A DNA stretch of 50,415 bases from Bacilli bacterium (GTDB taxonomy: Bacteria > Bacillota_I > Bacilli_A > RF39 > UBA660): NCBI GenBank assembly GCA_017432665.1, contig JAFRIS010000027.1, positions 1-50,415 of the forward strand, read 5' to 3'. The position numbers and the translations under genes were made by a program. Of this stretch, positions 1,950 through 42,645 are shown in pieces; position 1 is the stretch's first letter, and every line of letters begins with the position of its first letter. The notes under the pieces were generated by a model that worked only from the letters and a program-made list of their open reading frames with translations, was not told the origin of the DNA and ran no database searches.

Positions 1950-2031
1950 GAAAAAAATGAGGAACATTTTAATGTTCTTTTTTTGTGTTTTTAAAGATTA
2001 TATATTATAATTGGTAATAGAAGGTGATACA

Positions 2032-5344: not shown

Positions 5345-5348
5345 TAGA

Positions 5349-5789: not shown

Positions 5790-5835
5790 TATCCTTTATT
5801 TTTTTAAGAAAATATGATATAATATGTGTACATAT

Positions 5836-6211: not shown

Positions 6212-6314
6212 TAATGTATACAACAAACTTTATAGTTTGTTTTTTTATGTAAATTGACTAAAAAGCATATAGTATATATAATATATTTAGAATTGAAGAT
6301 GGGAGAGTGATAGT

Positions 6315-7922: not shown

Positions 7923-7972
7923 AGGACTATTAAGTCCTTTATTTTATGCTATAATAATGTTGAGGTGAGTAA

Positions 7973-8572
7973 ATGAAAGAATTAATTAATAAAAGTATAG
8001 GGGCAGCTATTTTAATAGGTTTAGGTAATTATGCACTATTAAAATTAGGTAATCCGATTGGTCCAGTAATATTTGCTTTAGGATTATTAGGAGTTTGTTA
8101 TATGGGACAAAACTTATTCACAGGAAAATGTGGATTTCTCTTCGCAGATTCTATTAATATTTGGGATTTGTTAATAATATTAATGGTTAATTTAATTGCT
8201 GGATATTTATGTGGCTTTATATTCTCTTATGCTGATAAAGAAATAGTAACTAACGCTCTTGCTAAAGTAGCTACTTGGGAGTTTTCAACTGCTTTCTTTA
8301 TAAAAGGTATATTATGTGGAGTTATTATGTATATCGCAGTATTTTTATATCGCAAGGGAACTCCGCTAGGTATCATTTATGGAATACCTTTATTTATTTT
8401 CTGCGGATTTCAACACTGTATTGCTAATATTATTACATTAGGAGTTGCTCATAGATTTCATTGGTCAATTGTATTAGCTATCTTAGGTAACTTTGCCGGA
8501 TCATTAATTATGTGGTACTTTTCTAAAGACATTGTAGTAGAAAAGAATGGTAGAAAAAAGCATGCAAAATAA
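7973..8572 (+). CDS. Formate/nitrite transporter family protein
   Basis: Multi-TM; NLFTG, KGILCG, FIFCGFQHCIAN, LGNFAG motifs. Confidence 0.85.
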   Translation: MKELINKSIGAAILIGLGNYALLKLGNPIGPVIFALGLLGVCYMGQNLFTGKCGFLFADSINIWDLLIILMVNLIAGYLCGFIFSYADKEIVTNALAKVATWEFSTAFFIKGILCGVIMYIAVFLYRKGTPLGIIYGIPLFIFCGFQHCIANIITLGVAHRFHWSIVLAILGNFAGSLIMWYFSKDIVVEKNGRKKHAK

Positions 8573-11074: not shown

Positions 11075-13327
11075 ATGAAGCATTATGTAGATTTAGTTTT
11101 AACAAATGCCAAGAAACCAATAGAAAAAGAAACACTATATTTAAAAGTGGCAGAATTATTGAATTCAAAAAATGAAGAAAATTTCAAGATTTCTAGTGAT
11201 GACAAGAATAAAATAGACGAGATTGTCGAAAAAGGGTTGGAAAATTACGAATATATTGAACACAATACTGGCAAAATTTCAGCTATTATGAAAACTTCTT
11301 ACAGGACTGGTAGATTTTATGGAAACCGTAATGGAGGAGGTTTTGTTATTACTAGGAATTTTTTTGTTAATAAAGAAGGAGAACATATAGGTACAGAATC
11401 TAAATATTCTATTACTAGAGATTTTAATAATGGTGCCATTGATGGGGACCTAGTACTTATAGATATTGGTGGTAATGACAGAAAGCCACAAATTGTGGAT
11501 ATTATTGAGAGAAATATAGAAAATGTTGCTGGTGAAGTTATAAGGCAAGGAAATAGCTACTTTCTTTTACCAGCTGATAGAAGGAAACAAAATATAAAAA
11601 TTGCCCTAAAAGGAGAGGCCATTGAAGGTCAAAGGGTGGCAGTTAAATTAATTGAACAAACTAATAATGATTTTTATATAGGAGAAATAACAAGAGTTTT
11701 TAATCACAAAGATGATCCTGATATGGATATTCTTTGGGAGGCTTTTAAATGTGGAATAGATGATCAATTTAGTGATGAATCTTTGGAGCAATTGAAATAT
11801 ATTCCTACTACTGTAAGAGACATTGATAAAATTGGAAGAGAAGATTTAACTAATTGGAAAGTATTTACTATTGATGGTGCTGATACTAAGGATATTGATG
11901 ATGCTCTAAGCTGTAGAAAGCTACCTAATGGTAATTATGAAGTAGGAGTACATATTGCTGATGTCAGTCACTATGTACCTGAAAATTCACCTTTAGATAA
12001 AGATGCTTTTAAAAGAGGTACTAGTAATTATTTGGGTAATAAGGTAATACCTATGTTTCCTCGTGAAATATCCAACGGAATTTGTTCATTAAAGCCTTAC
12101 GTTGAAAGACTTGCAATGAGCTGTATTATGGAAATCAATAATAAGGGAGAAATAGTACACTATCGTATTACTCCAACGGTTATTAAATCAAATTTGCAAA
12201 TGACTTATGATAATGTTAATAATATTTTAAAAGATGGTAAAGTCCTTAAAGAATATGCAGAATTCACAGAAGAATTGCGTACACTTAATAAAATAGCTTT
12301 GTTACTACGTAAGAATAGAATTATGAATGGAGCTATTGAAGTTGATAAAACAGAATTAAAGCGAATATATAGTGACAAAGGAAAAATAGTAGATTTTTCT
12401 ATGAGGGAACATGATTTGGGAGAAAATTTAATTGAAGAGTTTATGGTTTTGGCAAATGAAACAGTAGATAAACATCTAAGCAAATTAGGTTTTCCATGTG
12501 TACATAGAGTTCACGATATACCAAGTGAAGAAAAATTAGCTGAATTTTTGAAAATGTTAGAGGCAATAAATTTACCATTTTCATATAATGCTAAGCAATG
12601 TATAGAATCTTCAAAAGTAATGCAGGATTTAGCAGAACATGTTAAAAAAGCTGGTAAATTAAGCATGATGCTAATTGATAAAGAAATTAAATGTTTATCT
12701 AGAGCTAAGTATAGTTCAATTAATATTGGTCATTATGCACTTGCTATATATTATTATTGTCATTTCACTTCTCCAATTAGAAGATATCCTGATTTAACAG
12801 TGCATCGTATATTGAAAGAGTGTGCTTTCACTGATTCCGAAAGTGCCAGAAAAGCAGCTAGAAAATGGAAAGAAAAAATACCAGATATTGCTATGCAGTC
12901 TTCTAAAATGGAAAGAATGGAAGATAGAGCTGAAGAAGCTGTTAATGACATGAAATGTGCTGAATATATGGAAAGTCATATTGGTGAAGAATATAAAGGA
13001 ACAGTTACTAAGTTGTCATCCCGTGGTTTAACAGTACAATTGGATAATCTGGTAGAGGGTAAAGTAAGACTTAAAAATATGGAAGGCAGATATGCACATA
13101 ATCCTAATACTTATACTTTGATATCTCTAGATGGAAAACAAAATTATTTTCTTGGTGATAGATTACTAGTTAAAGTAAAAGCAGCTTCTAAAGAAGATAA
13201 AACTATTGATTTTGTTGTAAAAAGAAAAATAGAAGAAAACTATATAGATGATATAGACCATTCTAACCAAAAAGTTAAACGACTTGCTAAAAAGAGATGG
13301 GAAAAAAGATATCAAAGTAATTATTGA
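11075..13327 (+). CDS. Second RNase R/RNase II family exoribonuclease
   Basis: FTIDGADTKDIDDA, VHIADVSHYV, HFTSPIRRYPDL, S1 domain. Confidence 0.92.
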   Translation: MKHYVDLVLTNAKKPIEKETLYLKVAELLNSKNEENFKISSDDKNKIDEIVEKGLENYEYIEHNTGKISAIMKTSYRTGRFYGNRNGGGFVITRNFFVNKEGEHIGTESKYSITRDFNNGAIDGDLVLIDIGGNDRKPQIVDIIERNIENVAGEVIRQGNSYFLLPADRRKQNIKIALKGEAIEGQRVAVKLIEQTNNDFYIGEITRVFNHKDDPDMDILWEAFKCGIDDQFSDESLEQLKYIPTTVRDIDKIGREDLTNWKVFTIDGADTKDIDDALSCRKLPNGNYEVGVHIADVSHYVPENSPLDKDAFKRGTSNYLGNKVIPMFPREISNGICSLKPYVERLAMSCIMEINNKGEIVHYRITPTVIKSNLQMTYDNVNNILKDGKVLKEYAEFTEELRTLNKIALLLRKNRIMNGAIEVDKTELKRIYSDKGKIVDFSMREHDLGENLIEEFMVLANETVDKHLSKLGFPCVHRVHDIPSEEKLAEFLKMLEAINLPFSYNAKQCIESSKVMQDLAEHVKKAGKLSMMLIDKEIKCLSRAKYSSINIGHYALAIYYYCHFTSPIRRYPDLTVHRILKECAFTDSESARKAARKWKEKIPDIAMQSSKMERMEDRAEEAVNDMKCAEYMESHIGEEYKGTVTKLSSRGLTVQLDNLVEGKVRLKNMEGRYAHNPNTYTLISLDGKQNYFLGDRLLVKVKAASKEDKTIDFVVKRKIEENYIDDIDHSNQKVKRLAKKRWEKRYQSNY

Positions 13328-17845: not shown

Positions 17846-19105
17846 ATGAAAAAGAAGAATAAAAAAACTAAGAAAAAAAATATGTTTAGTGTTATTGAAA
17901 ATAAAATTTTTCATAAGGAAGAGGAAGAAGACACTACTTTTTCATTATTTGAAGTAATTATTATTATTTTAATTTCTATATTATTTGGAATAGTCATAGG
18001 ATATATAGTTACTTGTAGTAAAACTTCTATTATTATTAAAGATAAGAATTTAGCTGAAATAGTTAATGTATATAATAATTTAACTAATAATTATTATGAT
18101 AAAGTTAATAAAGATAAATTAAGTGATGGTGCAATTAAAGGGATGGTAGAATCATTAGACGATCCATTTACTAATTATATGGAAAATGAAACTGCTAAAG
18201 AATTTGATAGAGCAGTGAAGGGTAGTTTCATTGGTATTGGTGTTACTGTATCTTATCAAGAAGATGGATATTATAAAATTATTGAAATAATTGATAATAC
18301 TCCTGCTAGTAAAGCTGGATTAAAAGAAGATGATATTTTAATAAAGGTTAATGATATAGATATTGTAAAAGAACCTAAGATGTTTGAAAGTATTGCTAAA
18401 GGTAAAGTTGGTAGTAAAGTTAAACTAACTGTAAAAAGAAGAAATAAGGAAAAAGAATTTAATTTGAAAAGAGCTGTAGTTGAAATTCAAAGTGTTCATA
18501 ATAAAATCATTGATTATGAAGGATTAAATGTCGGTTATCTTAAAATTGATGTCTTTGCTGCTAATTCTTATAAGCAATTTAAAACTTCTATGAAAAGATT
18601 TGATAAGAATAATATTGATGCTTTAGTAATAGATGTTCGTGATAACCCGGGAGGACATTTAAACCAAACGCGAGAGATATTAAGTACTTTCTTCCCAAAG
18701 AAGACTGTCTTATATCAAGTTGAAACAAAAAAGGGTTCTAAGAAAATCTATTCAATGAATAATAGCAGTAAGAATTATCCAGTAATAGTATTAATAAATT
18801 CTGCTAGTGCTTCAGCATCTGAAATATTGGCTTCTTGCTTTAAAGAGAATTATAAGAATGCTACTATTGTAGGAACAAGTTCTTATGGAAAAGGTACTGT
18901 TCAAAAATCACAATCGTTGAATGATGGTAGTAGCATCAAGTATACTACTGAAAAATGGTTAACTTCTAAGGGTAAATGGATAGGAGACAAAGGAATAAAG
19001 CCAGATGTGTTTGTAGAAGAGACTAAAGATTATTGTGAAAATCCAAACTATGATAATGATACACAATTACAAGAAGGTTTAAAAAAATTAAAAGAGTCTA
19101 ATTAG
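17846..19105 (+). CDS. S41 C-terminal processing peptidase with PDZ domain
   Basis: GIGV, DVRDNPGG, SASASE, GKGTVQ motifs. Confidence 0.93.
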   Translation: MKKKNKKTKKKNMFSVIENKIFHKEEEEDTTFSLFEVIIIILISILFGIVIGYIVTCSKTSIIIKDKNLAEIVNVYNNLTNNYYDKVNKDKLSDGAIKGMVESLDDPFTNYMENETAKEFDRAVKGSFIGIGVTVSYQEDGYYKIIEIIDNTPASKAGLKEDDILIKVNDIDIVKEPKMFESIAKGKVGSKVKLTVKRRNKEKEFNLKRAVVEIQSVHNKIIDYEGLNVGYLKIDVFAANSYKQFKTSMKRFDKNNIDALVIDVRDNPGGHLNQTREILSTFFPKKTVLYQVETKKGSKKIYSMNNSSKNYPVIVLINSASASASEILASCFKENYKNATIVGTSSYGKGTVQKSQSLNDGSSIKYTTEKWLTSKGKWIGDKGIKPDVFVEETKDYCENPNYDNDTQLQEGLKKLKESN

Positions 19106-19113
19106 ACTCTTTT
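19090..19113. terminator. Perfect 24-bp palindrome, likely bidirectional terminator, overlapping two stop codons
   Basis: aaaagagtctaa|ttagactctttt. Confidence 0.8.
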
Positions 19114-19607
19114 TTTACGCAATTAATTATTAGTTGATAGCCGTCTTTATTAGGACTACAAGTTGTTAAAACTAATTGGTAATTATTTTCTTTATTAATA
19201 TTGATATAGCCGTCTTTCTTTTCTTCCCAAATAGATACTACATAATAGATATAGTTATTATTTTTATATGTTAATTTAATTGTATCATTAATATTTAAAT
19301 GATCTAATTCTTGAAAATAAGCTATTTTTCCTTTACCTGAATGAGCTGCTAAGACGAGAATATCTGGAAAAGATGACTCTTTTAGAATAGTCACATGTTC
19401 ATCAACATTATTTCTAGGACTATCAATATCATATAAATCTTCTTTTAAATTAATTTTATTAATGGTTAAAGTGCCAATAGGCTTTTCCCCTAAAGTAATT
19501 ATCTTAAAGTTAGGAAATGTTTCCTCTTTTGCTGATATTTTTAAAATTGAAAATGGTAAAAGTAATAATAAGAATAGTACTAATAATAAATATAATCTTT
19601 TTATCAT
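19098..19607 (-). CDS. Sortase
   Basis: LAAHSG and LVLTTC motifs; N-terminal TM; follows a pilin-like gene. Confidence 0.88.
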   Translation of the reverse strand: MIKRLYLLLVLFLLLLLPFSILKISAKEETFPNFKIITLGEKPIGTLTINKINLKEDLYDIDSPRNNVDEHVTILKESSFPDILVLAAHSGKGKIAYFQELDHLNINDTIKLTYKNNNYIYYVVSIWEEKKDGYININKENNYQLVLTTCSPNKDGYQLIINCVKKESN

Positions 19608-21019
19608 AATAGGATTAAAACTAGTCTTATGATTAATAAGAATAAACTAGTTTCAGCACGGGTATTAGGTACCGGTATTCTTAAATCTTTTAGCTCTATT
19701 CTTTCTTCTTCATTATCACTTACTTCTACAGTAAATGGTTCTATTTTAGAATAACCATCAGTAGAATTAATTTGAACAATCTTATATTTTCCATAAGGAA
19801 GAGTAATTTCTATGAGACCATTTTCATCAGTAATCACAGTTTCAATTAACTCATCATTACTATTAAAAATATTAAAACTAATATTTTCTTCATTCATAAG
19901 TTTGTTGTTATCACCATATTTTTTCTCGATAATAATCTTTTTTTCAATTACTTTATTTTCTAAAGTTAATTGTATTGTTGGATTATTCTCAGCAATATTA
20001 ATTTCATACTTATTAGTATCTAGAGTATACCCAATACCTGGGGTATCTTCTAGAAGGTAATATTTACCGAAGTCTATATTATTTAAAACATCGTAATTAT
20101 CATTGATAGTGAATGTATGAATTAAATTATCATTCGTATCATATAATTTATAAACAGCCCCATCTAAAGTAGCTTCTCCTCTAGGAGTGGTTGATTTATT
20201 GTCTTGATCTATCTTAGATAGTTCTATTTTAGTATGAATAGCTTTTACCTTAAATGAAGCATTTAAATCATTTAAATCACCATAATTCACTAGATTTTGA
20301 CTACCATTGGCTTGATAAAAAATGATTGGTTTATTATAGTAATTATCTTGCTTAGTAAATGTATAATTATAGTTACCTTCCTTAATATTATTTAGAGTTA
20401 TTTTATTATCAGTAATAGTTAAATTATCATTTGATTTGAAACTAGTAATAATATTATTAGTATCTTCAACAACTAAGTTATTTCCCTCAATCACAGTATA
20501 TGTTTTGTTATTAAAAGATGGTAATTTATCATATTCTTTTATTAAATTATTAATTTCTTGTATTTCACTTTGATATGGGTTAATTCTAGGACCATTTAGA
20601 CCATCAGTAAAGTAGTAATCTCCAGAAGTATCAGCAGTTTGCCAAATCATTAATTGTGTAATAGCATACCATTTAGTTGTATTATGTTTTTTATAGCCCA
20701 AACCAAAGTGAGCTATTTTAGAAATTCTATCTATTTGAGCTTTAGATAGATTTCTAGGATTAACTGTGGGGGTATAATTCTTATTTTCATCAAAAAAAAC
20801 AAAAGGTTCAAGGCAATAAGCCATTGCATGATCATTAGTTCTTCTAAAAACACGAGCTTGTTGGTAATAGATAGTATTAGTAGAGTATTGGTATTTATTC
20901 ATATAAATATCAGATATATATTCTGCTTCAAAGAAACTTTCAGCATGAACATCAGTAATGAAAATAAAGCTTGAAAATATACTAAAGAGAAGTATTAAGA
21001 AAAATTTAAATTTATTTAT
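19604..21019 (-). CDS. Thioester-domain (TED) adhesin with SpaA/Cna-B domains and VPNT sorting signal; probable ATA start
   Basis: AYCLEP, TQLMIW, SQNLV; LDGAVYKLY and YYLLED..GY SpaA motifs; PVPNT plus hydrophobic tail. Frame is open 39 codons upstream of the ATG at 20902, encoding a signal peptide behind GGAGG. Confidence 0.8.
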   Translation of the reverse strand: MNKFKFFLILLFSIFSSFIFITDVHAESFFEAEYISDIYMNKYQYSTNTIYYQQARVFRRTNDHAMAYCLEPFVFFDENKNYTPTVNPRNLSKAQIDRISKIAHFGLGYKKHNTTKWYAITQLMIWQTADTSGDYYFTDGLNGPRINPYQSEIQEINNLIKEYDKLPSFNNKTYTVIEGNNLVVEDTNNIITSFKSNDNLTITDNKITLNNIKEGNYNYTFTKQDNYYNKPIIFYQANGSQNLVNYGDLNDLNASFKVKAIHTKIELSKIDQDNKSTTPRGEATLDGAVYKLYDTNDNLIHTFTINDNYDVLNNIDFGKYYLLEDTPGIGYTLDTNKYEINIAENNPTIQLTLENKVIEKKIIIEKKYGDNNKLMNEENISFNIFNSNDELIETVITDENGLIEITLPYGKYKIVQINSTDGYSKIEPFTVEVSDNEEERIELKDLRIPVPNTRAETSLFLLIIRLVLILL

Positions 21020-32510: not shown

Positions 32511-32537
32511 ATGGCCAATTTTAAAGGGGGAAACAGG

Positions 32538-33488
32538 ATGAGTGATGAAAGGGCACAAAAAAAAGAACTTGTACAATATGTATTAAGTACAGCAGGATTA
32601 GATATACCATTTATAATTCAAGAATCTTTCTTAGGATATAAATATCGTAAGAGATCAAAAAAACTTTATGAAACTGATGCTTTAGTACCAACAAAATTAA
32701 TTAAAATGTATTATAGTTTAAATCCGGGAGAAGTTGAATTTGATAACTTAAGAAAAAGTTTTATAAGTAGATATGTTAAAAATGAAAGTAAACTTGAAGG
32801 TGTAAATAGTGAAAATATTCATGGACGAGAAGAAATTGCTGGTCTTGTTGATATGTATGAATATTTACATTCTACTGAAATGGAAGAAGATTTTTGTATT
32901 TATTCATTAAATGAATTACATAGAAAGTTATTCTGTCACACTGAATTTCCAGAATGTGCAGGAAGTTATCGTACTCATGATGTTTATCTACCAGGAACTG
33001 GTATTGGTTTAACTGAGTGGTCTATGATACCTGTCGAATTATATAGAATTAGTCCTAGAGTTGATATATTACACGAAAAATCTAAGTTAGTTAAGGAATA
33101 TGGTGATGTTGATGACTTGTTAGCCTTCTTAGATGAATGTGTAGAATTAAATTGTGATTTAATAAAGATCCATCCATTTGGTGATGGTAATGGTAGAACT
33201 ATACGAGCTTTTACAAATAAAATGCTTGAAGATGCAGGCCTTCCTTCTATCTATATTAAAGCTAACGAAAGAGCAGAATATCAAGCTGCAATGAGTTTAG
33301 CTTTAGGAGAAGGGGATTACTCATTTATTAAGGGCTTTTATAGATATAAAGTATGTGATTCAATTATTGAATTAGATATTAATGAAAGATTAAAGAATAA
33401 GCCAAAGGAATTATCAAGTGAAACAATACAAAAACAAAAGAAATATGAGTATTACTTTAATATGGCAAAAGAAAGAGAGAGTCGTTAA
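32538..33488 (+). CDS. Fic family protein
   Basis: HPFGDGNGRTIR catalytic motif; ESKLEG segment; ATG after aaggggg. Confidence 0.92.
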   Translation: MSDERAQKKELVQYVLSTAGLDIPFIIQESFLGYKYRKRSKKLYETDALVPTKLIKMYYSLNPGEVEFDNLRKSFISRYVKNESKLEGVNSENIHGREEIAGLVDMYEYLHSTEMEEDFCIYSLNELHRKLFCHTEFPECAGSYRTHDVYLPGTGIGLTEWSMIPVELYRISPRVDILHEKSKLVKEYGDVDDLLAFLDECVELNCDLIKIHPFGDGNGRTIRAFTNKMLEDAGLPSIYIKANERAEYQAAMSLALGEGDYSFIKGFYRYKVCDSIIELDINERLKNKPKELSSETIQKQKKYEYYFNMAKERESR

Positions 33489-33582
33489 TCTCTCCTTTTT
33501 ATTGTTAGCTATTTACATTGTAGTAGTAAAAAGGAAGAAATTTCCTTTTTTTTGTGGTATTATATAGATAATGGAGGAGTAT

Positions 33583-35235
33583 ATGAAAAAGGATCTTACA
33601 ATGAAAAAGAGTACTTTTGTAAAAGGTGCTTTTATAACAACATTAGGAATTATTATTTCTAAGATATTAGGTATTATTTATGTAATTCCTTTTCATGCCA
33701 TAATAGGAGAAACAGGTGGGGCTCTATATGGTTATGCATATACAATTTATTTGGTATTTATGTCTTTATCAACTGCAGGTATTCCTTTAGCTATCAGTAG
33801 AATAGTCTCAGAATATCAGACATTGGGATACTATAGAGCCAAGAAAAGAGTTTTTGTTTTAGGTAAACGAATAGCTTTATTATTAGGAATTATATGTTTT
33901 TTAATTATTATGGTATTTGCTCCAATGCTCGCTAAAGCAGTATTAGGTAATGTTACTGGTGGTAATTCTATTGAAGATGTTACATTTGTTATTAGAGTAA
34001 TAGGAACAGCTATCTTAATAGTACCAGTACTAAGTATTTATCGAGGTTATTTTGAAGGACATAGATTTATGAGTGCCCCTTCTATATCTCAAGTATTAGA
34101 ACAAATTGTAAGGGTTTTAATAATCATATTTGGTAGTTTAATGGCTTTAAAAGTATTTAGGTTTGATTTAACTACAGCAGTAGGAATAGCTTTATTTGGT
34201 GCTACAGTAGGTGCTTTAGTAGCATACCTATACTTGGTATATAAGAAATTAAGAAATAAGAGAAAGTTTAATGAGCGAATTAGACAAGTAAATGAACCAA
34301 TTATAACTGATAAAGTAATTATTAGTAAAATAATTTATTATGCCATTCCTTTTATTATGATAGATCTATTTAAAACAGCTTATAATTATGTAGATATGGT
34401 TACAGTAGTAAAAGGTTTAGTTAATACAGTTAATTTTAGCGCAGTAGATGCTGAAACTATTTATTCAATGCTATCTACTTGGGCCAATAAATTTAATATG
34501 ATTGTTCTAGCTATTTCAACAGGTGTAGTAGTAAGCTTAATACCTAATATTACTGAAAGTGTAGTTAAAAAGCAAGAAAAAGAAGTTAACGCGAAAACTA
34601 ATCAAGCGTTAAGCATTCTAGTATTCTTAACTATACCTATGACTTTAGGAATCAGTTTCCTAGCTAAACCAATTTGGACTTTATTCTATGGAAATAGTAC
34701 CTATGGTCCTAGTGTTTTAAGTTACTACATTTTTCTAGGTTTTATTATTGGACTATTTACTTGTGTAATTACCATTCTTCAAGTATTGAAAGATTATAAA
34801 GCTGTATTTATTAGTTTAATAATTGGAGTAATTATCAAAGTATTATTAAATCATAATCTATTAATAGCTTTTAATAATATGAAATTACCTCCATATTATG
34901 GCTTTATTACTGCCAGTATTCTAGGTTATTTTATATCATTTATTATTTGTATTACTGCCTTACATAATAAATATCAAATAAGGTTTGAGTACTTAGTAAG
35001 AAATCTAATAGATATTATTTGTGGCTCATTAGTTATGATCGTAGTATTAAGTTTAATTAAACTAATTATTCCAATTTATTCTATGACTAGACTAACTAAT
35101 TTAATAATAGTTATAGCGTATGCACTTATAGGTGCAATTGTTTATTTCGTTTATGCATATTTTACGGGGCTAACTAAAAAAATATTTGGTAAAGATATAG
35201 TTTTAGTGTTAAAAAGAGTGTTAACTAAGAAGTAA
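33583..35235 (+). CDS. MOP-family flippase (YtgP/MurJ-like)
   Basis: About 14 TM; KILGIIYVIPF, STAGIPLAIS, RGYFEG, SQVLEQIVR. Confidence 0.85.
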   Translation: MKKDLTMKKSTFVKGAFITTLGIIISKILGIIYVIPFHAIIGETGGALYGYAYTIYLVFMSLSTAGIPLAISRIVSEYQTLGYYRAKKRVFVLGKRIALLLGIICFLIIMVFAPMLAKAVLGNVTGGNSIEDVTFVIRVIGTAILIVPVLSIYRGYFEGHRFMSAPSISQVLEQIVRVLIIIFGSLMALKVFRFDLTTAVGIALFGATVGALVAYLYLVYKKLRNKRKFNERIRQVNEPIITDKVIISKIIYYAIPFIMIDLFKTAYNYVDMVTVVKGLVNTVNFSAVDAETIYSMLSTWANKFNMIVLAISTGVVVSLIPNITESVVKKQEKEVNAKTNQALSILVFLTIPMTLGISFLAKPIWTLFYGNSTYGPSVLSYYIFLGFIIGLFTCVITILQVLKDYKAVFISLIIGVIIKVLLNHNLLIAFNNMKLPPYYGFITASILGYFISFIICITALHNKYQIRFEYLVRNLIDIICGSLVMIVVLSLIKLIIPIYSMTRLTNLIIVIAYALIGAIVYFVYAYFTGLTKKIFGKDIVLVLKRVLTKK

Positions 35236-35302
35236 AAAAGCTTTTATTATTTAAAAATAAGTCAATAAATGTTATGATTAATATGATAAAGTAGGTGATT
35301 GT

Positions 35303-36262
35303 ATGGTAAGTGCTACAAGTGTAACAACACAAAAAACTGATTTAGAAACCCAAGTTAAAAATTATAGAAACCATACTAATGGTGTTGATGGTATTTGGGA
35401 AGGTGAATCGCATGATAAATTTATAGGCGAAGCAGAAAGCTTTGCTTCTGAATGTGCAAAGATATCTACTGGAATGGAGGCTTTTGCTAAGGCATGTACA
35501 GCTTATCAAAACTATATTAATGCTAAAAAAGTAAAAGAAGAAAGAGAACAAAGATATAATCATGCTGTTTCTACTAACAGTGACCCAGAAGTAATACAAA
35601 AATATGCAGATGATGTAGATACATATAAAAAAGAAATGGAAAAGTATAAAAAGGAAATAGAATCTTATTTAGCAACTGCATCTTCTACTACAATAGAAGG
35701 AGGAAGTGCTAGTGTTAATGGCTTCTCAAAAACTTGGACAGCTTACTCAAGTGGTGTAGCTAATCAATTGGGTGGAGGCAGTGGTACTCTTCCAAATGCC
35801 CGTTTAGGAGAGAATGGTAGACCTGATCCTAGTAAAAATATTTTCTTCCAAAATGAAGCCAATGGAGGAATTAATGGTTTCCCTCTTAATGGTGGAGGAC
35901 CAGGAAAAGGTGGAAATTGTACTTACTACGCTTATAGTAGATTTAGTGAATTAATAGGTCAAGAAGCAAAAGGTTTAGCATCAGGTGATGCTTGTTCATG
36001 GTATTCTAATACTAAAGGATTTAAAAAAGGACAAGAACCAAGGCTTGGAGCAATTGCTGTATGGCAATACGGTAATAGTAGTAGTAATGGCCATGTCGCA
36101 GTTGTTGAAAAAATTGAAAAAAATGGTGATATTGTCGTATCAGAAGGTGGCTGGAGCAGTCAAAAATGGTATGGTAATAATACATATAAAAGAGCAAATA
36201 ATTATGCGACAGGATATAGTAATGGACACTTGTTAGGTTTTATTTATCCAGAAAAAGCATGA
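35303..36262 (+). CDS. WXG100-like N-terminus fused to a CHAP amidase/peptidase
   Basis: Helical N-terminus with WEG; GNCTYYA...GAIAVW...GHVAVVE...SE CHAP motifs; no signal peptide. Confidence 0.85.
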   Translation: MVSATSVTTQKTDLETQVKNYRNHTNGVDGIWEGESHDKFIGEAESFASECAKISTGMEAFAKACTAYQNYINAKKVKEEREQRYNHAVSTNSDPEVIQKYADDVDTYKKEMEKYKKEIESYLATASSTTIEGGSASVNGFSKTWTAYSSGVANQLGGGSGTLPNARLGENGRPDPSKNIFFQNEANGGINGFPLNGGGPGKGGNCTYYAYSRFSELIGQEAKGLASGDACSWYSNTKGFKKGQEPRLGAIAVWQYGNSSSNGHVAVVEKIEKNGDIVVSEGGWSSQKWYGNNTYKRANNYATGYSNGHLLGFIYPEKA

Positions 36263-36278
36263 ATAAGTTGGTGATAAA

Positions 36279-37109
36279 ATGGCTCAAGAAGAAATAAAGA
36301 CTGGTGACTATGCCAACTTTGATGCTGCACAAGAGAAGGTAGGGACACTTAATAAGAAACTTGAGAATCATCAAAAGAGTATTTCTGATAGTAAAACAAA
36401 ATTAAGTGATGCAAACATTTTCGCTGGACCCATTTGTGATTCTTGTATTGATGAAGTAACAAAGTTAGGGCAAGGTATGACTAGTATAATAAGTACTTTT
36501 ACTAGTATAAAAGATTATATAGCTACAGCACGAGCTAATTATGAAAAAGGTGATAAGGATGCTATTGCCTATTTGGATATTAAAGGAGATGGCATAGTAA
36601 CTCCTAGTGCTACTAATGGAAATCAGAGTCTAGTTAATTCTCTTACCGGTGAACTTGGAAAAAGAAGTGGCGATTATGGTGACTCCTCTGTTAAATTCCA
36701 TAATGGAGAATGGTGTGCAGATTTTGTTAGCTATATGCTTAAAAAAAATGGTTACAATTATCGTTGGGCTACTTTAGCAGGAGCCAATGATCCAACAACG
36801 ATATTTGGGGTAATGAAAGAACATGGTGATACAGTACATTATGATCAATATTCTGCTATTCAAGGCAAAAAGCCTGATAGTAGTTATGTAGCACAGCCCG
36901 GGGATGTTTTCTTAATGAATATTGGCGATAAAAAAATTTCTTATCATACAGGATTTGTAGTTAAAGATAATGGTGATGGAACTGTTACTACAATCGAAGG
37001 AAATACCTTTAAAGAAGGACAATCATATGATGGCAAAGGTATTGTTGAACAACATGTAAGATCAAAAAAAGATATTTATGGGTATATAAGCCCTACAATG
37101 GATACTTAG
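36279..37109 (+). CDS. WXG100-like N-terminus (FAG, YxxxD) fused to a CHAP-type amidase
   Basis: WCADFVS, PGDVF, HTGFV, TIEGNT; N-terminus paralogous to 38481. Confidence 0.82.
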   Translation: MAQEEIKTGDYANFDAAQEKVGTLNKKLENHQKSISDSKTKLSDANIFAGPICDSCIDEVTKLGQGMTSIISTFTSIKDYIATARANYEKGDKDAIAYLDIKGDGIVTPSATNGNQSLVNSLTGELGKRSGDYGDSSVKFHNGEWCADFVSYMLKKNGYNYRWATLAGANDPTTIFGVMKEHGDTVHYDQYSAIQGKKPDSSYVAQPGDVFLMNIGDKKISYHTGFVVKDNGDGTVTTIEGNTFKEGQSYDGKGIVEQHVRSKKDIYGYISPTMDT

Positions 37110-37123
37110 GAAGGAGATAAAAT

Positions 37124-38179
37124 ATGAGATTTTTATTAGATACAGAGGCAATAAAAAGTCCTACCGATGGATATAAAACTGCCGCTAAAAAGGTTTCATC
37201 TATTGCTGATACTGTTAGTGGCTTTGATACTAGTTGTGAAGATGGCTTTGATTTTGCTGGCGCTAAATCAGTAATTGTAGCAAATCTAACAGCATGTGCT
37301 AATAGAATGAATAATACAGCAGCAATTGTTGATGGAGTAGTAGAAGCACATACTAGTTTGCAAAAGGCATTTACTTATGAAAACTTTATGAATCCTCCTG
37401 AGTCAAAAAAAGACGATGCAAACGTTCAATACTATAGCGGAAGCAATAGTGGCGGTGGCGGTGGAGGATATAATTCATACAGTTCAGGAAGTGGTTATTA
37501 TAGTGGTATATCACCGTTCGTAGGCTCTATTATAGCCGAGCAGACTACTCAACAAGATGAAGGAACTGGTACTGCTCAAGCAACACCAGAAGGAACTCAA
37601 GTAAGTTCTGAAAAATCACAATTTAAGGCAGTATCATATGCTAAGTATGACACTAAAAAATTAAGTAAAGAATCTAAAGAAGTTTTAGATGGAAAAACTG
37701 TTACTGAAAATGGATATTTAAAAATAGATAATAGATATGTCGTTGCTTGTGACCCATCTATTGCTAAAGTAGGTAGTATATTTAGATTTACTGGATCAGA
37801 TGGAAAAACAGTAGAATGTGTTGTAGGAATTAATACAGTAAAACCAGAATATAAAGATAAATTTTTCTTAATAGTTGGAGATAAAAGCTTTAAACCAGTT
37901 GATTTTGCTGGAACAATTACAGCAAAAGATACTAAAGTGGAATCATTAGGTAATGTTCTAACAACTCCACCAGCACCAACTAGTGGTATAGCTACAGGAG
38001 TTACTGAAAATCCTAATAAAGTTCCAGATAACACTACCGTAAACAATGAAAACAGCAATATAACTGCAGCTACTGAGGGAGAAACTACTGTTACTGATTC
38101 TAAAACTGATTCGACTGAGGATAGTGATAAAGTTCAAGCAATGCTTAATGATGAAAGTATTCCTAAGGAGGAAGTATAA
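37124..38179 (+). CDS. Helical N-terminus (FAG) + Gly/Ser linker + putative 3D-like beta-barrel + disordered tail
   Basis: RYVVACDPSIAKVGS...DGKTVECVVG; operon context. Confidence 0.55.
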   Translation: MRFLLDTEAIKSPTDGYKTAAKKVSSIADTVSGFDTSCEDGFDFAGAKSVIVANLTACANRMNNTAAIVDGVVEAHTSLQKAFTYENFMNPPESKKDDANVQYYSGSNSGGGGGGYNSYSSGSGYYSGISPFVGSIIAEQTTQQDEGTGTAQATPEGTQVSSEKSQFKAVSYAKYDTKKLSKESKEVLDGKTVTENGYLKIDNRYVVACDPSIAKVGSIFRFTGSDGKTVECVVGINTVKPEYKDKFFLIVGDKSFKPVDFAGTITAKDTKVESLGNVLTTPPAPTSGIATGVTENPNKVPDNTTVNNENSNITAATEGETTVTDSKTDSTEDSDKVQAMLNDESIPKEEV

Positions 38180-38469
38180 TGGCTAAATATGTGTGTGATT
38201 ATGAAACAGTTAAAGAAATTGGAAAAGCTGTATGCGATGTAGCTCAATCAGTTGTTAGTGATTTAGATACTTATAGTGGCAATGTTGAAAGTGATTTAAA
38301 TGGTTGGAATAGTGCTGCAAAGAATTCTTTTGTAGTTACAAATGCCGCTCAAGTCGCAACTGGAAAAACTGCTGCTGAATATGCTACTAGTGTGGGTAAT
38401 TATATTCAAACTGCTGCTCAAAAAATTCAAGAGACAGATTCAGAATTAGCAGGACAAATTACTATTTAG
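38179..38469 (+). CDS. Stand-alone WXG100-like protein
   Basis: 96 aa, helix-turn-helix pattern, central GWNSAA, C-terminal IQETD; start overlaps the upstream stop (TAATG). Confidence 0.75.
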   Translation: MAKYVCDYETVKEIGKAVCDVAQSVVSDLDTYSGNVESDLNGWNSAAKNSFVVTNAAQVATGKTAAEYATSVGNYIQTAAQKIQETDSELAGQITI

Positions 38470-38480
38470 GTGGGATAATT

Positions 38481-39302
38481 ATGGCATCAACCGAAATAAA
38501 AACAGGCGATTATGACAATTTTAATAACGCACAAAATACAGTACAAACACTTAATAAGGCTATTGCAGAAAATCAGAAAAAAATTTCAAATAGTAAAACA
38601 AAATTGTCAGATGATAGTATCTTTGCAGGTCCTATTAGTGTTGCTTGCAATGATGAACTTTCTAAATTAGATAGTCAAATAACAGGAATTTCTACTAACT
38701 TTTCTAGTATACAGAGTTATTTGGGTAAAGCAGTTAATAATTATCAAGAAGGAGATAAAGCAGCTATTACTTATTTAAGTATTAAAGATGGTAAAATAGT
38801 TGAAACTAATACACCTCCAGCGGTATTAGGATCTGGTAATGAAATAATAACAGGTTTATCAGGTAATAGTAATCAAGAAAAAGTATATGATTATTTAAAA
38901 AAAGCAGGTTTCAACTCTGCTGTTATCAGTGGAATAATGGCTAATATAAATGCAGAGTCTGGTTTCCAAATATCTGTTGATGGTGATGGAGGATGGTCTC
39001 ATGGTCTTTGTCAATGGTATAGAGGTAGGAATGATAATTTGCACAGTTATTGTAAGAAGAATAATTTAAAAGTTGATTCAGTAGAGGGACAAATGGCCTT
39101 TATGATGCATGAATTAAATACTGGTTATAAAAATTCAGTCCTTGAAAAGTTAAAGAATGTTCCCAATACTAAAGAAGGAGCATATGAAGCAGCTTCTATT
39201 TGGACTAAGTATTATGAAATACCTGCTAATACTAATACACAGGCTCATAATAGAGGAAAAACAGCTCAATCTACTTATTGGGATATATATGGAAATAAAT
39301 AA
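38481..39302 (+). CDS. WXG100-like N-terminus (FAG, YxxxD) fused to a phage-tail lysozyme domain
   Basis: GIMANINAESG, GLCQW...R, QMAFMMHEL, YYEIP motifs. Confidence 0.85.
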   Translation: MASTEIKTGDYDNFNNAQNTVQTLNKAIAENQKKISNSKTKLSDDSIFAGPISVACNDELSKLDSQITGISTNFSSIQSYLGKAVNNYQEGDKAAITYLSIKDGKIVETNTPPAVLGSGNEIITGLSGNSNQEKVYDYLKKAGFNSAVISGIMANINAESGFQISVDGDGGWSHGLCQWYRGRNDNLHSYCKKNNLKVDSVEGQMAFMMHELNTGYKNSVLEKLKNVPNTKEGAYEAASIWTKYYEIPANTNTQAHNRGKTAQSTYWDIYGNK

Positions 39303-39333
39303 AAAATCTACATTATGTAGATTTTTATTTTTT
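39301..39333. terminator. Bidirectional intrinsic terminator
   Basis: aaaaatctaca-tta-tgtagattttt between convergent genes. Confidence 0.8.
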
Positions 39334-40605
39334 TAATTTATGATACAAACTAAAAGCTATATTATAAGCATGATACCAAAACTTAGAAATAATTAGGTCA
39401 TATTCACCTATTAATTCGACTACATGGCCTCCAAAACTCTTTTTAAATAGATATAGACCAAACAATGGATTCTCTTTTCTAAAGTCACCTGTAATACCAT
39501 AGAAGTTATATCTCTTATAACCATGATCAATCGCATATTTAATACCGGCATAATGAACAGTATAAGCAGATTGAAATTGCATAAGATTATCATCAGTACC
39601 ACCAAATAATGATAATACTTCGTTACCATATACTAGGAATAAAATAGTTCCTAGATTTTTTTTGTCTCCATATTCTTTTTGATAATCTTTAATTTTATCA
39701 ATTTGTTTCTTTAAACGTTCAATAGACTCCCTATCTTGCTTATTAGTAGACTCATACTTCTTTTCGTTCATTTGAAGTAATTTATTGTCATGCTTATAAA
39801 TTCTATCTTTTAAAGCATCTTCTACAGTTTTAAGTTCTTCTCTAGTATTCTTTTCATATTCTTTAAAGTCTATATCTGCAAGTAGTATTTTTAAAATACC
39901 ACTCTCATATAAATTATCCCACATGGCTTCATAATATGATAAAGGTCTATCTACAAAGTCTCTTCTATCTCCAGTATGTTCCATTATTTCTTTAAATATT
40001 GGTAATTCATCTCTAGTTATTTCTCTAGTTTTAATACAAGATTTTTCATTCTTTCTAAGTATTTGTCTAGTCTTAGATTCCATATCTTTTTGAACTTCTT
40101 CTTCACTTCTACCATTTATCTCAATTACATGCATCCATCTAGGTTGAAGGGTATCTTGCATTAAGTTAAATCCAAAGAATTTATAACCTAAAGCTTTTAA
40201 GTTTTCTACAGCTTGCTTGTTATTATAACCATCTTCTACTACATTACCATCATTATCATGTTCTTGATATTCTACATAAGGATCTATTTTAATAAAGATA
40301 GCTCCTTCTTTTTTAGCAAATTCTTTTATTTCTTTAGTAAATTCTCCTAATAATTTTTTATCATTATAATCAATTAGAAATCCTCTAGGAGAATAGAACA
40401 TTTTTTTCTTGATAATAGGTAATGCCTTAGAAAGTATTAGTGCCCCAGCAACAATCTTTTTCTCATCTTTTAGGCCTAGATAGTAAGCATCCCAGCCATT
40501 AGTTTTTTTAAGATTAGCCCATTCTTCAGTTTGATGAAAAGTAATTTGAGGATGTTTATCAGCAAATTTCTTAAACTCTTTTTTAGTTAGACTTACTAAT
40601 TTCAT
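39325..40605 (-). CDS. FemABX/MurMN peptidoglycan bridge aminoacyltransferase
   Basis: YSPRGF, IKIDP, QPRW, YNFYGI, FKKSFGG; coiled-coil insertion. Confidence 0.92.
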   Translation of the reverse strand: MKLVSLTKKEFKKFADKHPQITFHQTEEWANLKKTNGWDAYYLGLKDEKKIVAGALILSKALPIIKKKMFYSPRGFLIDYNDKKLLGEFTKEIKEFAKKEGAIFIKIDPYVEYQEHDNDGNVVEDGYNNKQAVENLKALGYKFFGFNLMQDTLQPRWMHVIEINGRSEEEVQKDMESKTRQILRKNEKSCIKTREITRDELPIFKEIMEHTGDRRDFVDRPLSYYEAMWDNLYESGILKILLADIDFKEYEKNTREELKTVEDALKDRIYKHDNKLLQMNEKKYESTNKQDRESIERLKKQIDKIKDYQKEYGDKKNLGTILFLVYGNEVLSLFGGTDDNLMQFQSAYTVHYAGIKYAIDHGYKRYNFYGITGDFRKENPLFGLYLFKKSFGGHVVELIGEYDLIISKFWYHAYNIAFSLYHKLKK

Positions 40606-41896
40606 TTTTTAACTCCTTCTTGCTTCTGTTTCTCACTAGTTTTCTATATAACGGAACTAACTTAGTAAAAACAAAATACATTATTGGATTTGTTACTAAA
40701 TCAAATTCTCCAATGAATTCTACATAGTCTCCCCCAAATTTCTTTTTAAACTCATGTAATCCAAGTCTTGGATTATTTTCACTTAAATCACCTATAGTAC
40801 CAAACTGATCATATATTTTAAGACCTTTTTCTTTACAATATTTTAAATGTTCATAATAGGTATTATAGTTAACATAAGTTTCACTAAGAATATTATGATT
40901 ACCAGCATATAATACCCAAGCTTTATCACCATATTCAATAATCATATGAGCACTTAAAGTAATCTCATCACCATGTTCTTTTTTACAATCCTTATATTTA
41001 GATATTTCTTTAGTGACATTTTCTTTTTGCCTAGTTAATTCAGCTAACTTAGCTTTAGCACTTTTACTAAGGTTATCAATCGGTAAAATAGATATTTGAT
41101 CATTAATAATTTTTAAATTCTTTTCTAAAGCTTTAATTGTTTTATCAAAATTAATTTTCCCTAAAAACAGTGTTGCATGAGCATTCTTATTACCATTAAA
41201 AACTTCATATAAAGTTTCATAGTAATCTTCTGTATAAGAAATAAAATCTTTTCTATTTTCAGTTAAAGTCATTAAATGATAAAACTCCTTAACATCATCT
41301 TTATCACCGATAACTACTTCAGTATCAATCTTTTTAGCTTTAGCTATTCTTTGTTTAGTAGTCTTAGAAAAATGATTTTCTATATCTTCTAAGCTTTGTT
41401 CTAAATCAACTCTAAAAGTGTATCTAGGTTGCATAGTTTCAAAGTTCTTAGTAAATCCTAAATGCTTAAAACCACATTCTTTTAAAGTGTTAAATACTTC
41501 ATCAAAATTAGGATTATCTTTTTCTTCATTTTGATAATTAAATGAAGTCTTAATAATATCAGGATCTATCTTAATAAAAATAGCTCTTTTTTCTTTTACA
41601 AAATCTTTTACTTTCTTAGTCATAGTACGGACTATTTCTTTTTTGTTGTAGTCTAAGACAAATCCTCTAGGAGCATAGAAATAACATAAATTTAATGGTA
41701 ATTTCTTTTCTAATAGTAGAGTAGCTCCTACTATTTCATCTTTATCATTAACTAATCCTAAATAATAAGGAGTTAGATTTTTTTTAGCTTTCGCAAATTC
41801 TCCCCAGGCAAGTGATTGTAGGAAATGTGACTTAGTTTTATGATTCACAACAAAGTTATCAAATTGTTCTTTTTCTAGGTTTTTAAGTTTTAACAT
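40583..41896 (-). CDS. FemABX/MurMN peptidoglycan bridge aminoacyltransferase
   Basis: HFLQS..W, YAPRGF, IKIDP, QPRY, FKKKFGG, IGEFD. Confidence 0.92.
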   Translation of the reverse strand: MLKLKNLEKEQFDNFVVNHKTKSHFLQSLAWGEFAKAKKNLTPYYLGLVNDKDEIVGATLLLEKKLPLNLCYFYAPRGFVLDYNKKEIVRTMTKKVKDFVKEKRAIFIKIDPDIIKTSFNYQNEEKDNPNFDEVFNTLKECGFKHLGFTKNFETMQPRYTFRVDLEQSLEDIENHFSKTTKQRIAKAKKIDTEVVIGDKDDVKEFYHLMTLTENRKDFISYTEDYYETLYEVFNGNKNAHATLFLGKINFDKTIKALEKNLKIINDQISILPIDNLSKSAKAKLAELTRQKENVTKEISKYKDCKKEHGDEITLSAHMIIEYGDKAWVLYAGNHNILSETYVNYNTYYEHLKYCKEKGLKIYDQFGTIGDLSENNPRLGLHEFKKKFGGDYVEFIGEFDLVTNPIMYFVFTKLVPLYRKLVRNRSKKELKNEISKSN

Positions 41897-42000
41897 CTAT
41901 ATACCTCACTTTCCTAGAATTAGTATATCATAAATTTATAAATATTTATCTTTTTTATTAAAATATAACGATTTATGGTAAAATAAAAGCAGGTGGATTT

Positions 42001-42645
42001 ATGAGACTTAGAAATGTTAAAAATAAAGAAATAATTATGAATAATTCTAGTTACTTAATAAAGGATTGTTATGACTTAAAAGGTAAATGGAATAAGTTCT
42101 TTAAAAATAATAATCCTATCTATATAGAAATAGGTATGGGAAAAGGTAAGTTTATTATTGAAAACGCTCTAAAATATCCGAATATTAACTTTATTGGAAT
42201 AGAAAAATATGATAGTGTAGTAGCTAAGGCATTGAAGAAAATACCTGATGGTTTAGATAACTTAGCAATGCTTAGATTAAATGCTTTAGAAATAGACCAA
42301 GTATTTAGTCATGAAATAGATCATATATTTTTAAATTTTTCTGATCCTTGGCCTAAAACTAGGCATCATTTGAGAAGATTATCTAGTAAAGTTTTTCTAG
42401 AAAAATATGATAATATTTTTAAAGATAAAAAAATAATAGAAATGCGTACTGATAATCGTAATTTATTTGAATACTCATTAGTAAGCTTTAGTGAATATGG
42501 CTATATACTAAATAATGTCAGTTTAGATTATCATAAAGACAATAGTCCAGATATAACTACTGAATATGAAGATAAATTTACTAAAGAAGGATTGCCAATT
42601 TACTATGTATTATGCACTAGTAATCTTGTTAAAAACCGTAAATAG
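42001..42645 (+). CDS. trmB: tRNA (guanine-N7)-methyltransferase
   Basis: MRLR, EIGMGKG, LNFSDPWPK.RH, TEYE. Confidence 0.96.
   Translation: MRLRNVKNKEIIMNNSSYLIKDCYDLKGKWNKFFKNNNPIYIEIGMGKGKFIIENALKYPNINFIGIEKYDSVVAKALKKIPDGLDNLAMLRLNALEIDQVFSHEIDHIFLNFSDPWPKTRHHLRRLSSKVFLEKYDNIFKDKKIIEMRTDNRNLFEYSLVSFSEYGYILNNVSLDYHKDNSPDITTEYEDKFTKEGLPIYYVLCTSNLVKNRK

Follow-up and report, generated by a model that had tools for sequence, protein, structure and literature searches.

Cell wall hydrolases fused to a diverged WXG100-type domain form an accessory gene cluster in an uncultured Bacilli bacterium and are candidate substrates of a type VII secretion system

Why would a bacterium place related N-termini in front of two enzymes that otherwise have nothing in common? 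This question is raised by a 50,415-nucleotide stretch of DNA (contig JAFRIS010000027.1; hereafter the window) from an uncultured gut Bacilli bacterium that is known as a metagenome-assembled genome (MAG) of 1.19 Mb in 47 contigs, 71% complete and with a G + C content of about 28% (genome G000, in which the window is contig C19). Two open reading frames (ORFs), A and B, each preceded by a sequence resembling a ribosome-binding site, lie in a cluster of five tightly packed genes (35303-39302, about 4 kb; intergenic gaps of 16, 14, −1, and 11 nucleotides [nt]). An initial annotation had read them as polymorphic toxins that share a targeting domain for type VII export. Our analysis favors, with a probability of roughly 0.6, a related interpretation: the five genes form an accessory effector module of a system for type VIIb secretion (T7SSb), in which WXG100-type helical hairpins carry wall hydrolases out of the cell. 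The genes, with protein lengths in amino acids (aa), are as follows.

35303-36262, plus strand: gene 1, 319 aa; N-terminal WXG100 domain with a true W-E-G turn (family iii, the "MVS..WxG" type) and C-terminal CHAP peptidoglycan hydrolase domain
36279-37109, plus strand: ORF A, 276 aa; FxGP N-domain at residues 1-105 (nt 36279-36593), followed by a CHAP domain at residues 142-242 (nt 36702-37004)
37124-38179, plus strand: gene 3, 351 aa; helical N-domain with a turn-like "FDFAG" motif (family iv), a linker, and a beta-rich C-domain
38179-38469, plus strand: gene 4, 96 aa; small WXG100-like protein of the "MAKYVCD" type (family i), predicted heterodimer partner of the FxGP domain
38481-39302, plus strand: ORF B, 273 aa; FxGP N-domain at residues 1-105 (nt 38481-38795), followed by a muramidase-type Phage_lysozyme2 domain at residues 131-266 (nt 38871-39278)

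BLASTP aligns the products of A and B with 66 identities over 128 positions (52%; E 1e-35); the first gap follows residue 107 and the similarity ends near residue 125, so that the ungapped N-terminus of about 105 residues that had been noticed in the pair is real. Beyond it the proteins are unrelated. A continues into a CHAP domain (PF05257, E 2.4e-9) and B into a Phage_lysozyme2 domain (PF18013, E 3.4e-33), for which "amidase and lysozyme" was a fair description. A profile of the two N-termini uncovered a third paralogue on another contig of the same genome (C13:1540-2370, minus strand), in which the same front end is joined to a Glucosaminidase domain (PF01832, GH73-type). F48-x-G50 and Y88-x-x-x-D92 are common to all three proteins. 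The coding DNA of the N-domains of A and B is identical at 204 of 315 positions, the third codon position being the least conserved (55 of 105), and judged from these sequences the two genes are old paralogues and not the products of a recent duplication.

Relatives of this front end, which we call the FxGP domain after its F-x-G-P turn, were reached only through an exhaustive profile search and a search of sampled genomes. Word-based homologue searches with the N-domain of A and with the 96-aa product of gene 4 returned the window's own proteins only, a search of genome contigs for related loci with a three-sequence alignment found no relative, and tblastn with the N-domain (E <= 1e-3) gave no match in 50,697 phage or 72,556 plasmid records. 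In a class-level sample, no match at E <= 1e-8 was obtained among 351 genomes of 29 other families or among the 49 genomes of the bacterium's own family in that draw. The exhaustive search covered 1.84 billion representatives and yielded 165 proteins at E <= 0.001, the best 150 of which were listed and examined; the family members that have a name come from "Bacilli bacterium" MAGs and are annotated only as hypothetical protein or as C40 peptidase. When the listed representatives were aligned back to the profile, the best-kept columns among the 152 aligned domains were Y11 (142), F14 (131), F48 (140), G50 (147), P51 (141), Y88 (138), and D92 (135), all far above a background of about 30% identity; at Y88 and D92, most of the other sequences are truncated and show a gap there (11 for Y88 and 14 for D92). 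Both motifs singled out by the initial annotation, FxG and YxxxD, are thus kept across the family. The turn keeps the glycine of W-x-G, but not its tryptophan, and a proline after the glycine is nearly invariant. About 12 residues separate YxxxD from the end of helix 2, and members that stand alone (about 100 aa) end about 10 residues past the D; others are fused to an enzyme.

The comparison with WXG100 proteins is instructive in this respect. Ordinary WXG100 proteins of 95 aa, encoded 1-10 kb from essC in related genomes, match the family profile in register (E 1e-11 to 1e-16), with W-S-G at the FxG position and Y-x-x-x-D at the YxxxD position. F48 aligns with their W, and the proposed replacement of W by F is borne out by this alignment. 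For the N-domains of A and B, all Pfam and NCBIfam models score below their cut-offs. With the Pfam WXG100 model (gathering cut-off 27.3 bits), A gave no match at E <= 0.1, B reached 15.1 bits as a whole protein and 18.5 bits as the N-domain, and the third paralogue reached 20.2 bits. WXG100 is also the commonest Pfam match in the family (found at E <= 0.01 in 10 of the 38 aligned members, with a best value of 1.6e-4, and always below the cut-off), and P0125 (36 bits) is the sole representative above the cut-off among the best 150 of the 165. An AlphaFold2 model of residues 1-105 of B, built from a 38-sequence alignment (predicted local distance difference test score [pLDDT] 87.8; predicted template modeling score 0.68), shows a hairpin whose two helices (12-42 and 51-102) are joined by a turn (43-50) containing F48-A-G50. 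Its top Foldseek matches are EsxA/EsxB structures: 4lws_A (template modeling [TM] score 0.74/0.77, root-mean-square deviation 2.2 over 93 columns), 3zbh, 3o9o, 3gvm, and 3fav. The suggestion of a lineage-specific domain without a Pfam model therefore holds as far as the models are concerned, but the domain is not a new fold: it is a diverged, lineage-restricted WXG100 subfamily with FxGP in the place of WxG.

WXG100 proteins are commonly encoded as adjacent pairs, and gene 4, directly upstream of B, is the candidate second member here. Its product matches Pfam WXG100 weakly (E 0.0046) and belongs to a family of 95-96 aa. In an order-level sample of 401 genomes, this family gave 12 strong matches (E <= 1e-11), all of them within the eight genomes with genes of the FxGP type; of the 12 matches, 8 end no more than 25 nt upstream of the start of an FxGP gene, an order that corresponds to the layout of esxB-esxA pairs. 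A model of the complex between residues 1-105 of B and the 96-aa protein reached an ipSAE interface score of 0.76 (runs 0.77, 0.76, and 0.76), as compared with 0.08 for the best control; of 157 solved complexes, 116 reach the mark against which we read this score, as do 2 of 215 mismatched pairs. Between runs, at least 91% of the contacts are shared, and the pLDDT of the partner is at least 85. In the model, helix 1 of the FxGP domain runs antiparallel to helix 1 of the partner, and the F48-G50 turn and W43 of the partner lie in the interface. The model supports a heterodimer of the FxGP domain with its partner, and it is on this basis that we infer a dimer.

What does the FxGP domain carry? 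Eighty-one of the 150 listed representatives are at least 200 aa long, and in 57 of these a Pfam domain was assigned to the C-terminus (E limits of 1e-3 for P0001-75 and 1e-4 for P0076-150). The 11 families are Phage_lysozyme2 (11 representatives), NlpC/P60 or ELLD (10), CHAP (9), Glucosaminidase (9), Peptidase_C39_2 (6), Peptidase_M23 (3), Esterase/Peptidase_S9 (3), Peptidase_M15_4 (2), Hydrolase_2 (2), NAGPA (1), and Lipase_GDSL_2 (1); three of the C39_2 matches and the GDSL match are below the curated cut-offs. Peptidoglycan hydrolases account for 52 of the 57 annotated payloads and fall into eight families, their chemistries spanning muramidase, glucosaminidase, amidase/endopeptidase, and carboxypeptidase. 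Nuclease, deaminase, ADP-ribosyltransferase, NADase, and pore-forming domains were found in none of the 57. The other 24 long representatives are without a Pfam C-domain, and one of them, P0122, a 440-aa low-complexity helical protein, is probably a false positive. The other 69 listed representatives are shorter and either stand alone or are fragments; in one of the fragments, P0133, the beginning of a lysozyme domain is visible. Catalytic residues persist within the fused members: of the CHAP Cys and His, C146 is kept in 9 of 10 and H223 in 10 of 10 CHAP proteins, and E159, the conserved Glu of the lysozyme, is invariant, like G175 and W179, in all 12 lysozyme proteins. Three payloads are present in the bacterium's own genome, and a related genome (G197) has at least C39_2, lysozyme, and NlpC/P60, with six FxGP fusions and three WXG-esterase genes. 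The fused C-termini are thus as varied as had been foreseen. The label of polymorphic toxin fits the conserved N-domain and its 11 C-domain families; it does not fit the fact that the payloads are almost all wall hydrolases and that an immunity gene is absent in and beside the cluster.

The remaining genes of the cluster have a comparable build. Gene 1 matches Pfam WXG100 above the cut-off (29.5 versus 27.3 bits, residues 4-66) and CHAP with E 1.5e-16 (residues 202-282). Gene 3 has no match to Pfam or NCBIfam models; its linker is of low complexity and rich in Gly, Ser, and Tyr (about residues 95-125), its tail is acidic and rich in Thr, Ser, and Asn, and homologues occupy the matching position of the module in genomes G376, G008, G408, G257, and G160. 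An Atlas search with its residues 160-285 placed unnamed phage and Bacillota proteins as the nearest clusters, with a 3D-domain cluster scoring 0.92 and phage NlpC/P60-YQBQ lysins as structural neighbors; the C-domain may be 3D-like, a lead that comes from the Atlas. The stretch VVACDPSIAKVGS of its beta-rich core resembles the first motif of 3D domains. The four N-domain families of the cluster are found together in the same five genomes and in G197, and the enzyme ends vary by genome: CHAP, NlpC/P60-ELLD, or esterase on the WxG-type carrier of gene 1 and its relatives, and C39_2, lysozyme, NlpC/P60, glucosaminidase, or M23 on the FxGP carrier. On contig C4 of G197 (4723-8298; locus L044), three tandem paralogues of 376-388 aa combine a WxG-type N-domain with an alpha/beta-hydrolase (esterase/Peptidase_S9); immediately downstream of this trio come a partner gene and two genes for FxGP hydrolases, and then, on the opposite strand, a gene for a 165-aa lipoprotein.

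By which route might these proteins leave the cell? A scan for hydrophobic segments found none in the five cluster proteins: the highest hydropathy value (KD19) is 1.08, as compared with 2.92 for a flippase used as control, ORF A peaks at 0.63, and the first 48 aa of the cluster proteins remain at or below 0.61, which leaves neither a signal peptide nor a transmembrane segment. Export via Sec is hence unlikely. An EssC protein with FHA and FtsK/SpoIIIE domains is encoded elsewhere in the genome (C13:21949-26517, minus strand), where it scores 987.8 bits with TIGR03928 (cut-off 778.4). EssC is above this cut-off in all eight carriers of FxGP-type genes and in 193 of the 401 genomes of the order sample; because the eight are related genomes from four genera only, these counts are not independent, and we take them as suggestive and attach no statistical test to them. 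A larger co-occurrence of the profile with EssC, in 38 of 38 genomes, was dropped since most of the weaker matches are ordinary WxG proteins beside essC, and for this reason only the eight genomes whose matches read FxGP were counted.

The components of the T7SSb core that we saw in the bacterium's genome are EssC, which in this lineage is about 1520-1580 aa long and has an FHA domain, and a small adjoining gene (locus C13:21681-26517). Listings of the ORFs at the essC loci of two relatives, G215 (C1; L054) and G376 (C5; L055), show, besides EssC, only a small gene of 85-87 aa and several WXG100 genes; ahead of essC in G215, four or five of the latter stand in tandem. Since EssC and a small neighbor are all that was found, the machine is atypical or incompletely seen, and the T7SS of the lineage looks minimal. 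Further candidates for T7SS substrates are present in the same small genome. At C36:34172-43360, an ORF of 2542 aa (34889-42517, minus strand) has small WXG100 genes (95, 97, 108, and 124 aa) on either side and possibly encodes a T7SS substrate of giant size; the contig stops shortly after it. At C31:8653-12488 and C5:46228-49276, small WXG100-like genes adjoin genes for proteins of 481, 536, and 457 aa with helical N-termini, and these clusters may be other T7 effector modules.

The surroundings of the cluster show that it is not a fixed part of the chromosome. They comprise the following features.

33571-35235, plus strand: flippase of the MurJ/Polysacc_synt type (Pfam); left flank, outside the system, marking the insertion site
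39304-39330, no strand assigned: AT-rich inverted repeat followed by a T-run, read from the sequence, between B and the convergent FemAB gene
39325-41896, minus strand: pair of FemAB-family genes (39325-40605 and 40583-41896; Pfam FemAB E 7e-110 and 1e-82); right flank

The inverted repeat is likely, from its sequence, a two-way terminator that ends the cluster; a terminator scan that requires three G-C pairs did not flag it, and a promoter scan gave 26 sites against 20.6 +/- 5.2 expected, no better than shuffles. In two genomes of the same genus (G021 and G324), the flippase gene directly abuts FemAB with no hydrolase cluster in between, and in a third genome (G369) a different FxGP pair, with M23 and lysozyme domains, is found at the same site; the cluster is therefore a variable insertion. 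With 73-79% identity, the FemAB genes are conserved as a pair in the cluster-less G021 and G324, and in G376, where the module is on another contig. We had considered the pair as dedicated immunity, by analogy with lysostaphin/Lif, and rejected this because it is conserved and syntenic with or without the cluster. Origin from a prophage or conjugative element was likewise rejected: the flanks encode leucyl-tRNA synthetase, a Fic protein, the flippase, FemAB, TrmB, and tyrosyl-tRNA synthetase, and contain no phage or transfer genes. The Fic/DOC-domain protein (325 aa; 32511-33488, plus strand) is encoded between leuS and the flippase gene, and in the same place in G021 (63% identity).

In the mechanism that we favor, the FxGP hairpin would pair with the 96-aa protein encoded upstream to form a four-helix bundle resembling EsxA/EsxB. 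This bundle would bear a two-part type VII targeting signal, YxxxD on the hydrolase and the turn W on the partner, and the EssC ATPase would recognize it and export it, along with the attached enzyme domain, through the membrane with no need of a Sec signal. Once outside, the enzymes (CHAP amidase/peptidase, muramidase, and glucosaminidase) would cut peptidoglycan, and their use could be the lysis of neighboring Gram-positive cells, for competition or for the release of nutrients.

A number of observations weigh against this interpretation. The module is never beside essC, being on another contig in the bacterium's own genome and 65-126 kb away in G376, G408, and G160. Models for EssB/YukC, EsaA, and YukD gave no credible match in G000 (weak E values of 4.6e-4 and 0.03 only), family models recognized no EssA there either, and the essC loci of G215 and G376 contain no obvious large EsaA-like gene with multiple transmembrane segments, as judged from ORF lists without a family scan. 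The partner has a W-N-S turn in the window, where its relatives have W-x-G. Although the nearest solved folds have TM scores of 0.66-0.77, their Foldseek E values of 0.5-2 are not significant and the hairpin fold is generic; a PDB profile search mixed ESAT-6-like matches (E 0.02-0.4) with coiled-coil noise. The conservation of the motifs was measured on sequences fetched by a profile that contains them, and the score of the complex may reflect likeness to solved Esx heterodimers and not binding. Kinship among the eight carriers, which represent four genera, weakens the co-occurrence of both EssC and the partner. Antagonism in particular is called into question by the absence of any immunity gene in the cluster or next to it, where B is followed by the hairpin and the convergent FemAB genes, and by the lack of a recurring downstream gene in G197, G376, and G369; a 165-aa lipoprotein gene after the last gene was seen on contig C4 of G197 only. 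Finally, all evidence is computational and concerns an uncultured organism known from a 71% complete MAG.

If the enzymes are exported, they may act on the wall of the producer itself, opening it locally for assembly of the T7SS or passage of its substrates, in the way of the Sec-exported CHAP hydrolase EssH of S. aureus, or serving cell separation or wall turnover. We consider this unlikely on balance and yet a serious rival, because no immunity gene was found. The position of the cluster between genes for a lipid II-type flippase and for FemAB wall proteins agrees with it, but these neighbors are housekeeping genes that are present without the cluster as well. A 2026 review treats the passage of T7SSb substrates through the thick wall as an open question (PMC13492133), and the report on the enzyme EatA raises the possibility that a wall-cutting T7 substrate aids the passage of others (PMC13444075). 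Against a role as a helper of this kind, the module is absent from two of the four other genomes of the same genus, G021 and G324, both of which encode EssC, and it is present in only 8 of the 193 EssC genomes of the order sample, so that the T7SS of this lineage does not need it. Copy number and payload vary widely, as the G197 genes illustrate, and eight hydrolase families with differing bond specificities resemble an arsenal and not a dedicated helper. The lysis of neighbors seems to us more likely than the cutting of the producer's own wall, given that the module is accessory and dispensable, occurs in multiple copies, recombines its payloads, and covers many bond specificities.

That the proteins are no T7SS cargo at all, the hairpin being a cytoplasmic or regulatory coiled coil (of the PcsB/CwlO type under FtsEX, or as in lysins of phages and integrative and conjugative elements) and release occurring by lysis, a holin, or other means, is improbable: helical hairpins are common and the fold matches statistically weak, payloads such as Phage_lysozyme2 and ELLD are characteristic of lysins from phages and conjugative elements, the cluster is far from essC, and core T7SSb membrane parts were not found in G000, but the in-register matches to essC-adjacent WXG100 proteins include YxxxD, a dedicated WXG-like partner gene is directly upstream, EssC accompanies all eight carriers, the flanks hold no phage, holin, or conjugation genes, the N-domain is unmatched in phage and plasmid records, and the cluster proteins are without a signal peptide or membrane anchor of the kind that PcsB and CwlO have.

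Two further features were noted in the window. A tmRNA gene (5836-6211, plus strand; tag peptide ANKLKNAVANMFGGNQAVAYAL) is downstream of the first of two genes for RNB-family exoribonucleases (2011-4179 and 11075-13327). At 19098-20902 (minus strand), a sortase gene is directly downstream of a gene for a surface protein with thioester (TED) and SpaA-type prealbumin-fold domains, which is a pilin or adhesin cassette.

How does the proposed effector module compare with known systems? With WXG100 proteins (EsxA/EsxB, PF06013) the FxGP proteins share the hairpin of about 100 residues, the aromatic-x-Gly turn, the adjacent gene pairs, a predicted four-helix heterodimer, and a genome that encodes EssC. 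They differ from them in the Phe and the near-invariant Pro, in Pfam scores below the cut-off, in the location of the genes away from essC, and in that about half of the listed representatives (81 of 150, at least 200 aa long) continue into an enzyme of some 150-200 aa. The LXG toxins (TelA-D of Streptococcus intermedius, EsaD-EsxBCD of Staphylococcus aureus) are similar in their helical T7SSb N-domain, variable C-terminal enzyme, and small helical partners encoded upstream, and TelC, as is proposed for the enzymes considered here, targets the cell wall pathway from the outer side of the membrane. However, the FxGP carrier of about 105 aa is half the length of the LXG domain of about 200 aa, and in place of nucleases, NADases, or pore-formers it carries peptidoglycan hydrolases almost exclusively; neither an adjacent immunity gene nor a DUF4176-type chaperone is present, and Pfam LXG (PF04740) matched none of the five cluster proteins at E <= 0.1.

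The Tae and Tge effectors of type VI secretion systems (T6SS) and the bacteriolysins lysostaphin/Lif and zoocin A/Zif, with their FemAB-type immunity, are wall-cutting enzymes directed against neighbors. T6SS effectors have periplasmic immunity proteins. As with the bacteriolysins, FemAB-family genes adjoin the hydrolase genes in the window, but T6SS effectors and bacteriolysins use other export routes, and the FemAB pair of the window is kept in cluster-less genomes. EssH of S. aureus is a CHAP peptidoglycan hydrolase functionally tied to the type VIIb system. It has a Sec signal, is encoded in the T7SS locus, and serves as a single conserved helper; the cluster proteins, unlike EssH, are without a signal peptide, have a WXG100-type domain, vary in number and kind, and are encoded on a contig other than that of essC. 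The 2026 review notes that no organisms other than S. aureus have EssH homologues and that no connection with the system has been established for the CHAP proteins that some T7SS loci encode (PMC13492133).

A functional parallel is found outside the Bacillota. EatA of Mycobacterium abscessus, reported in 2026 as a glycanase that degrades the cell-wall polymer of competitors, is a T7-secreted enzyme with a helical N-terminal bundle and small helical partners encoded upstream (EatA-TapA1/TapA2-EatI; T7SSa, ESX-4), and passages of the same report list NlpC/P60 among predicted T7 toxins of Actinomycetota loci (PMC13444075). EatA belongs to an actinobacterial T7SSa, has a different carrier family, and comes with a dedicated secreted inhibitor, EatI, to which nothing comparable is encoded here. 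The initial annotation had relied on YxxxD/E as the type VII export motif. For T7SSa this is established, and CFP-10 is described as having its YxxxD about 12 residues from the end (PMC10765036), as in the FxGP domain; for T7SSb, the 2026 review gives an analogous FxxxD in Lap1 of LXG systems as part of a composite signal (PMC13492133).

WXG-, LXG-, and LDXD-type N-domains on polymorphic toxins of T7SS were catalogued in 2012, and in the sections of that catalogue that we used, Tox-NlpC/P60 is given only for the T6SS, PVC, and TcdB/TcaC routes (PMC3482391). The effector table excerpted from the 2026 review lists NADase, lipid II phosphatase, membrane-depolarizing, and ADP-ribosyl cyclase activities, or functions not known (PMC13492133). 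Our full-text literature search found no account of peptidoglycan hydrolases on a WXG100-type carrier in Bacillota, nor of a peptidoglycan hydrolase as a T7SSb substrate, a result that reflects the limits of the search and is no proof of absence. New here is a short FxGP-type WXG100 carrier that is dedicated to cell-wall hydrolases.

A wider picture, which we offer tentatively and regard as rather doubtful, would be that small-genome gut Bacilli possess a stripped-down T7SS, in which EssC is joined by WXG100 proteins and the product of a small ubiquitin-like gene, EsaA, EssA, and EssB not being recognizable, and that a dedicated family of FxGP carriers exports a recombining hydrolase arsenal as Esx-like heterodimers without cognate immunity. 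This might be the first class of T7SSb effectors that lyse the walls of neighbors from outside, with self-protection by the producer's own wall chemistry, or alternatively an answer to the problem of T7SSb wall passage. The effectors associated with T7SSb so far are nuclease, NADase, lipid II phosphatase, and membrane-depolarizing toxins on LXG domains, and the module described here is a concrete case with a short carrier, a clear pair of motifs, a single partner gene, and at least eight hydrolase families. If export holds true, T7SSb would gain a class of payload that is new to it and a minimal carrier, the FxGP...YxxxD signature would find substrates that current Pfam models overlook, and the module would point to wall-lytic antagonism or scavenging in poorly known gut bacteria with reduced genomes.

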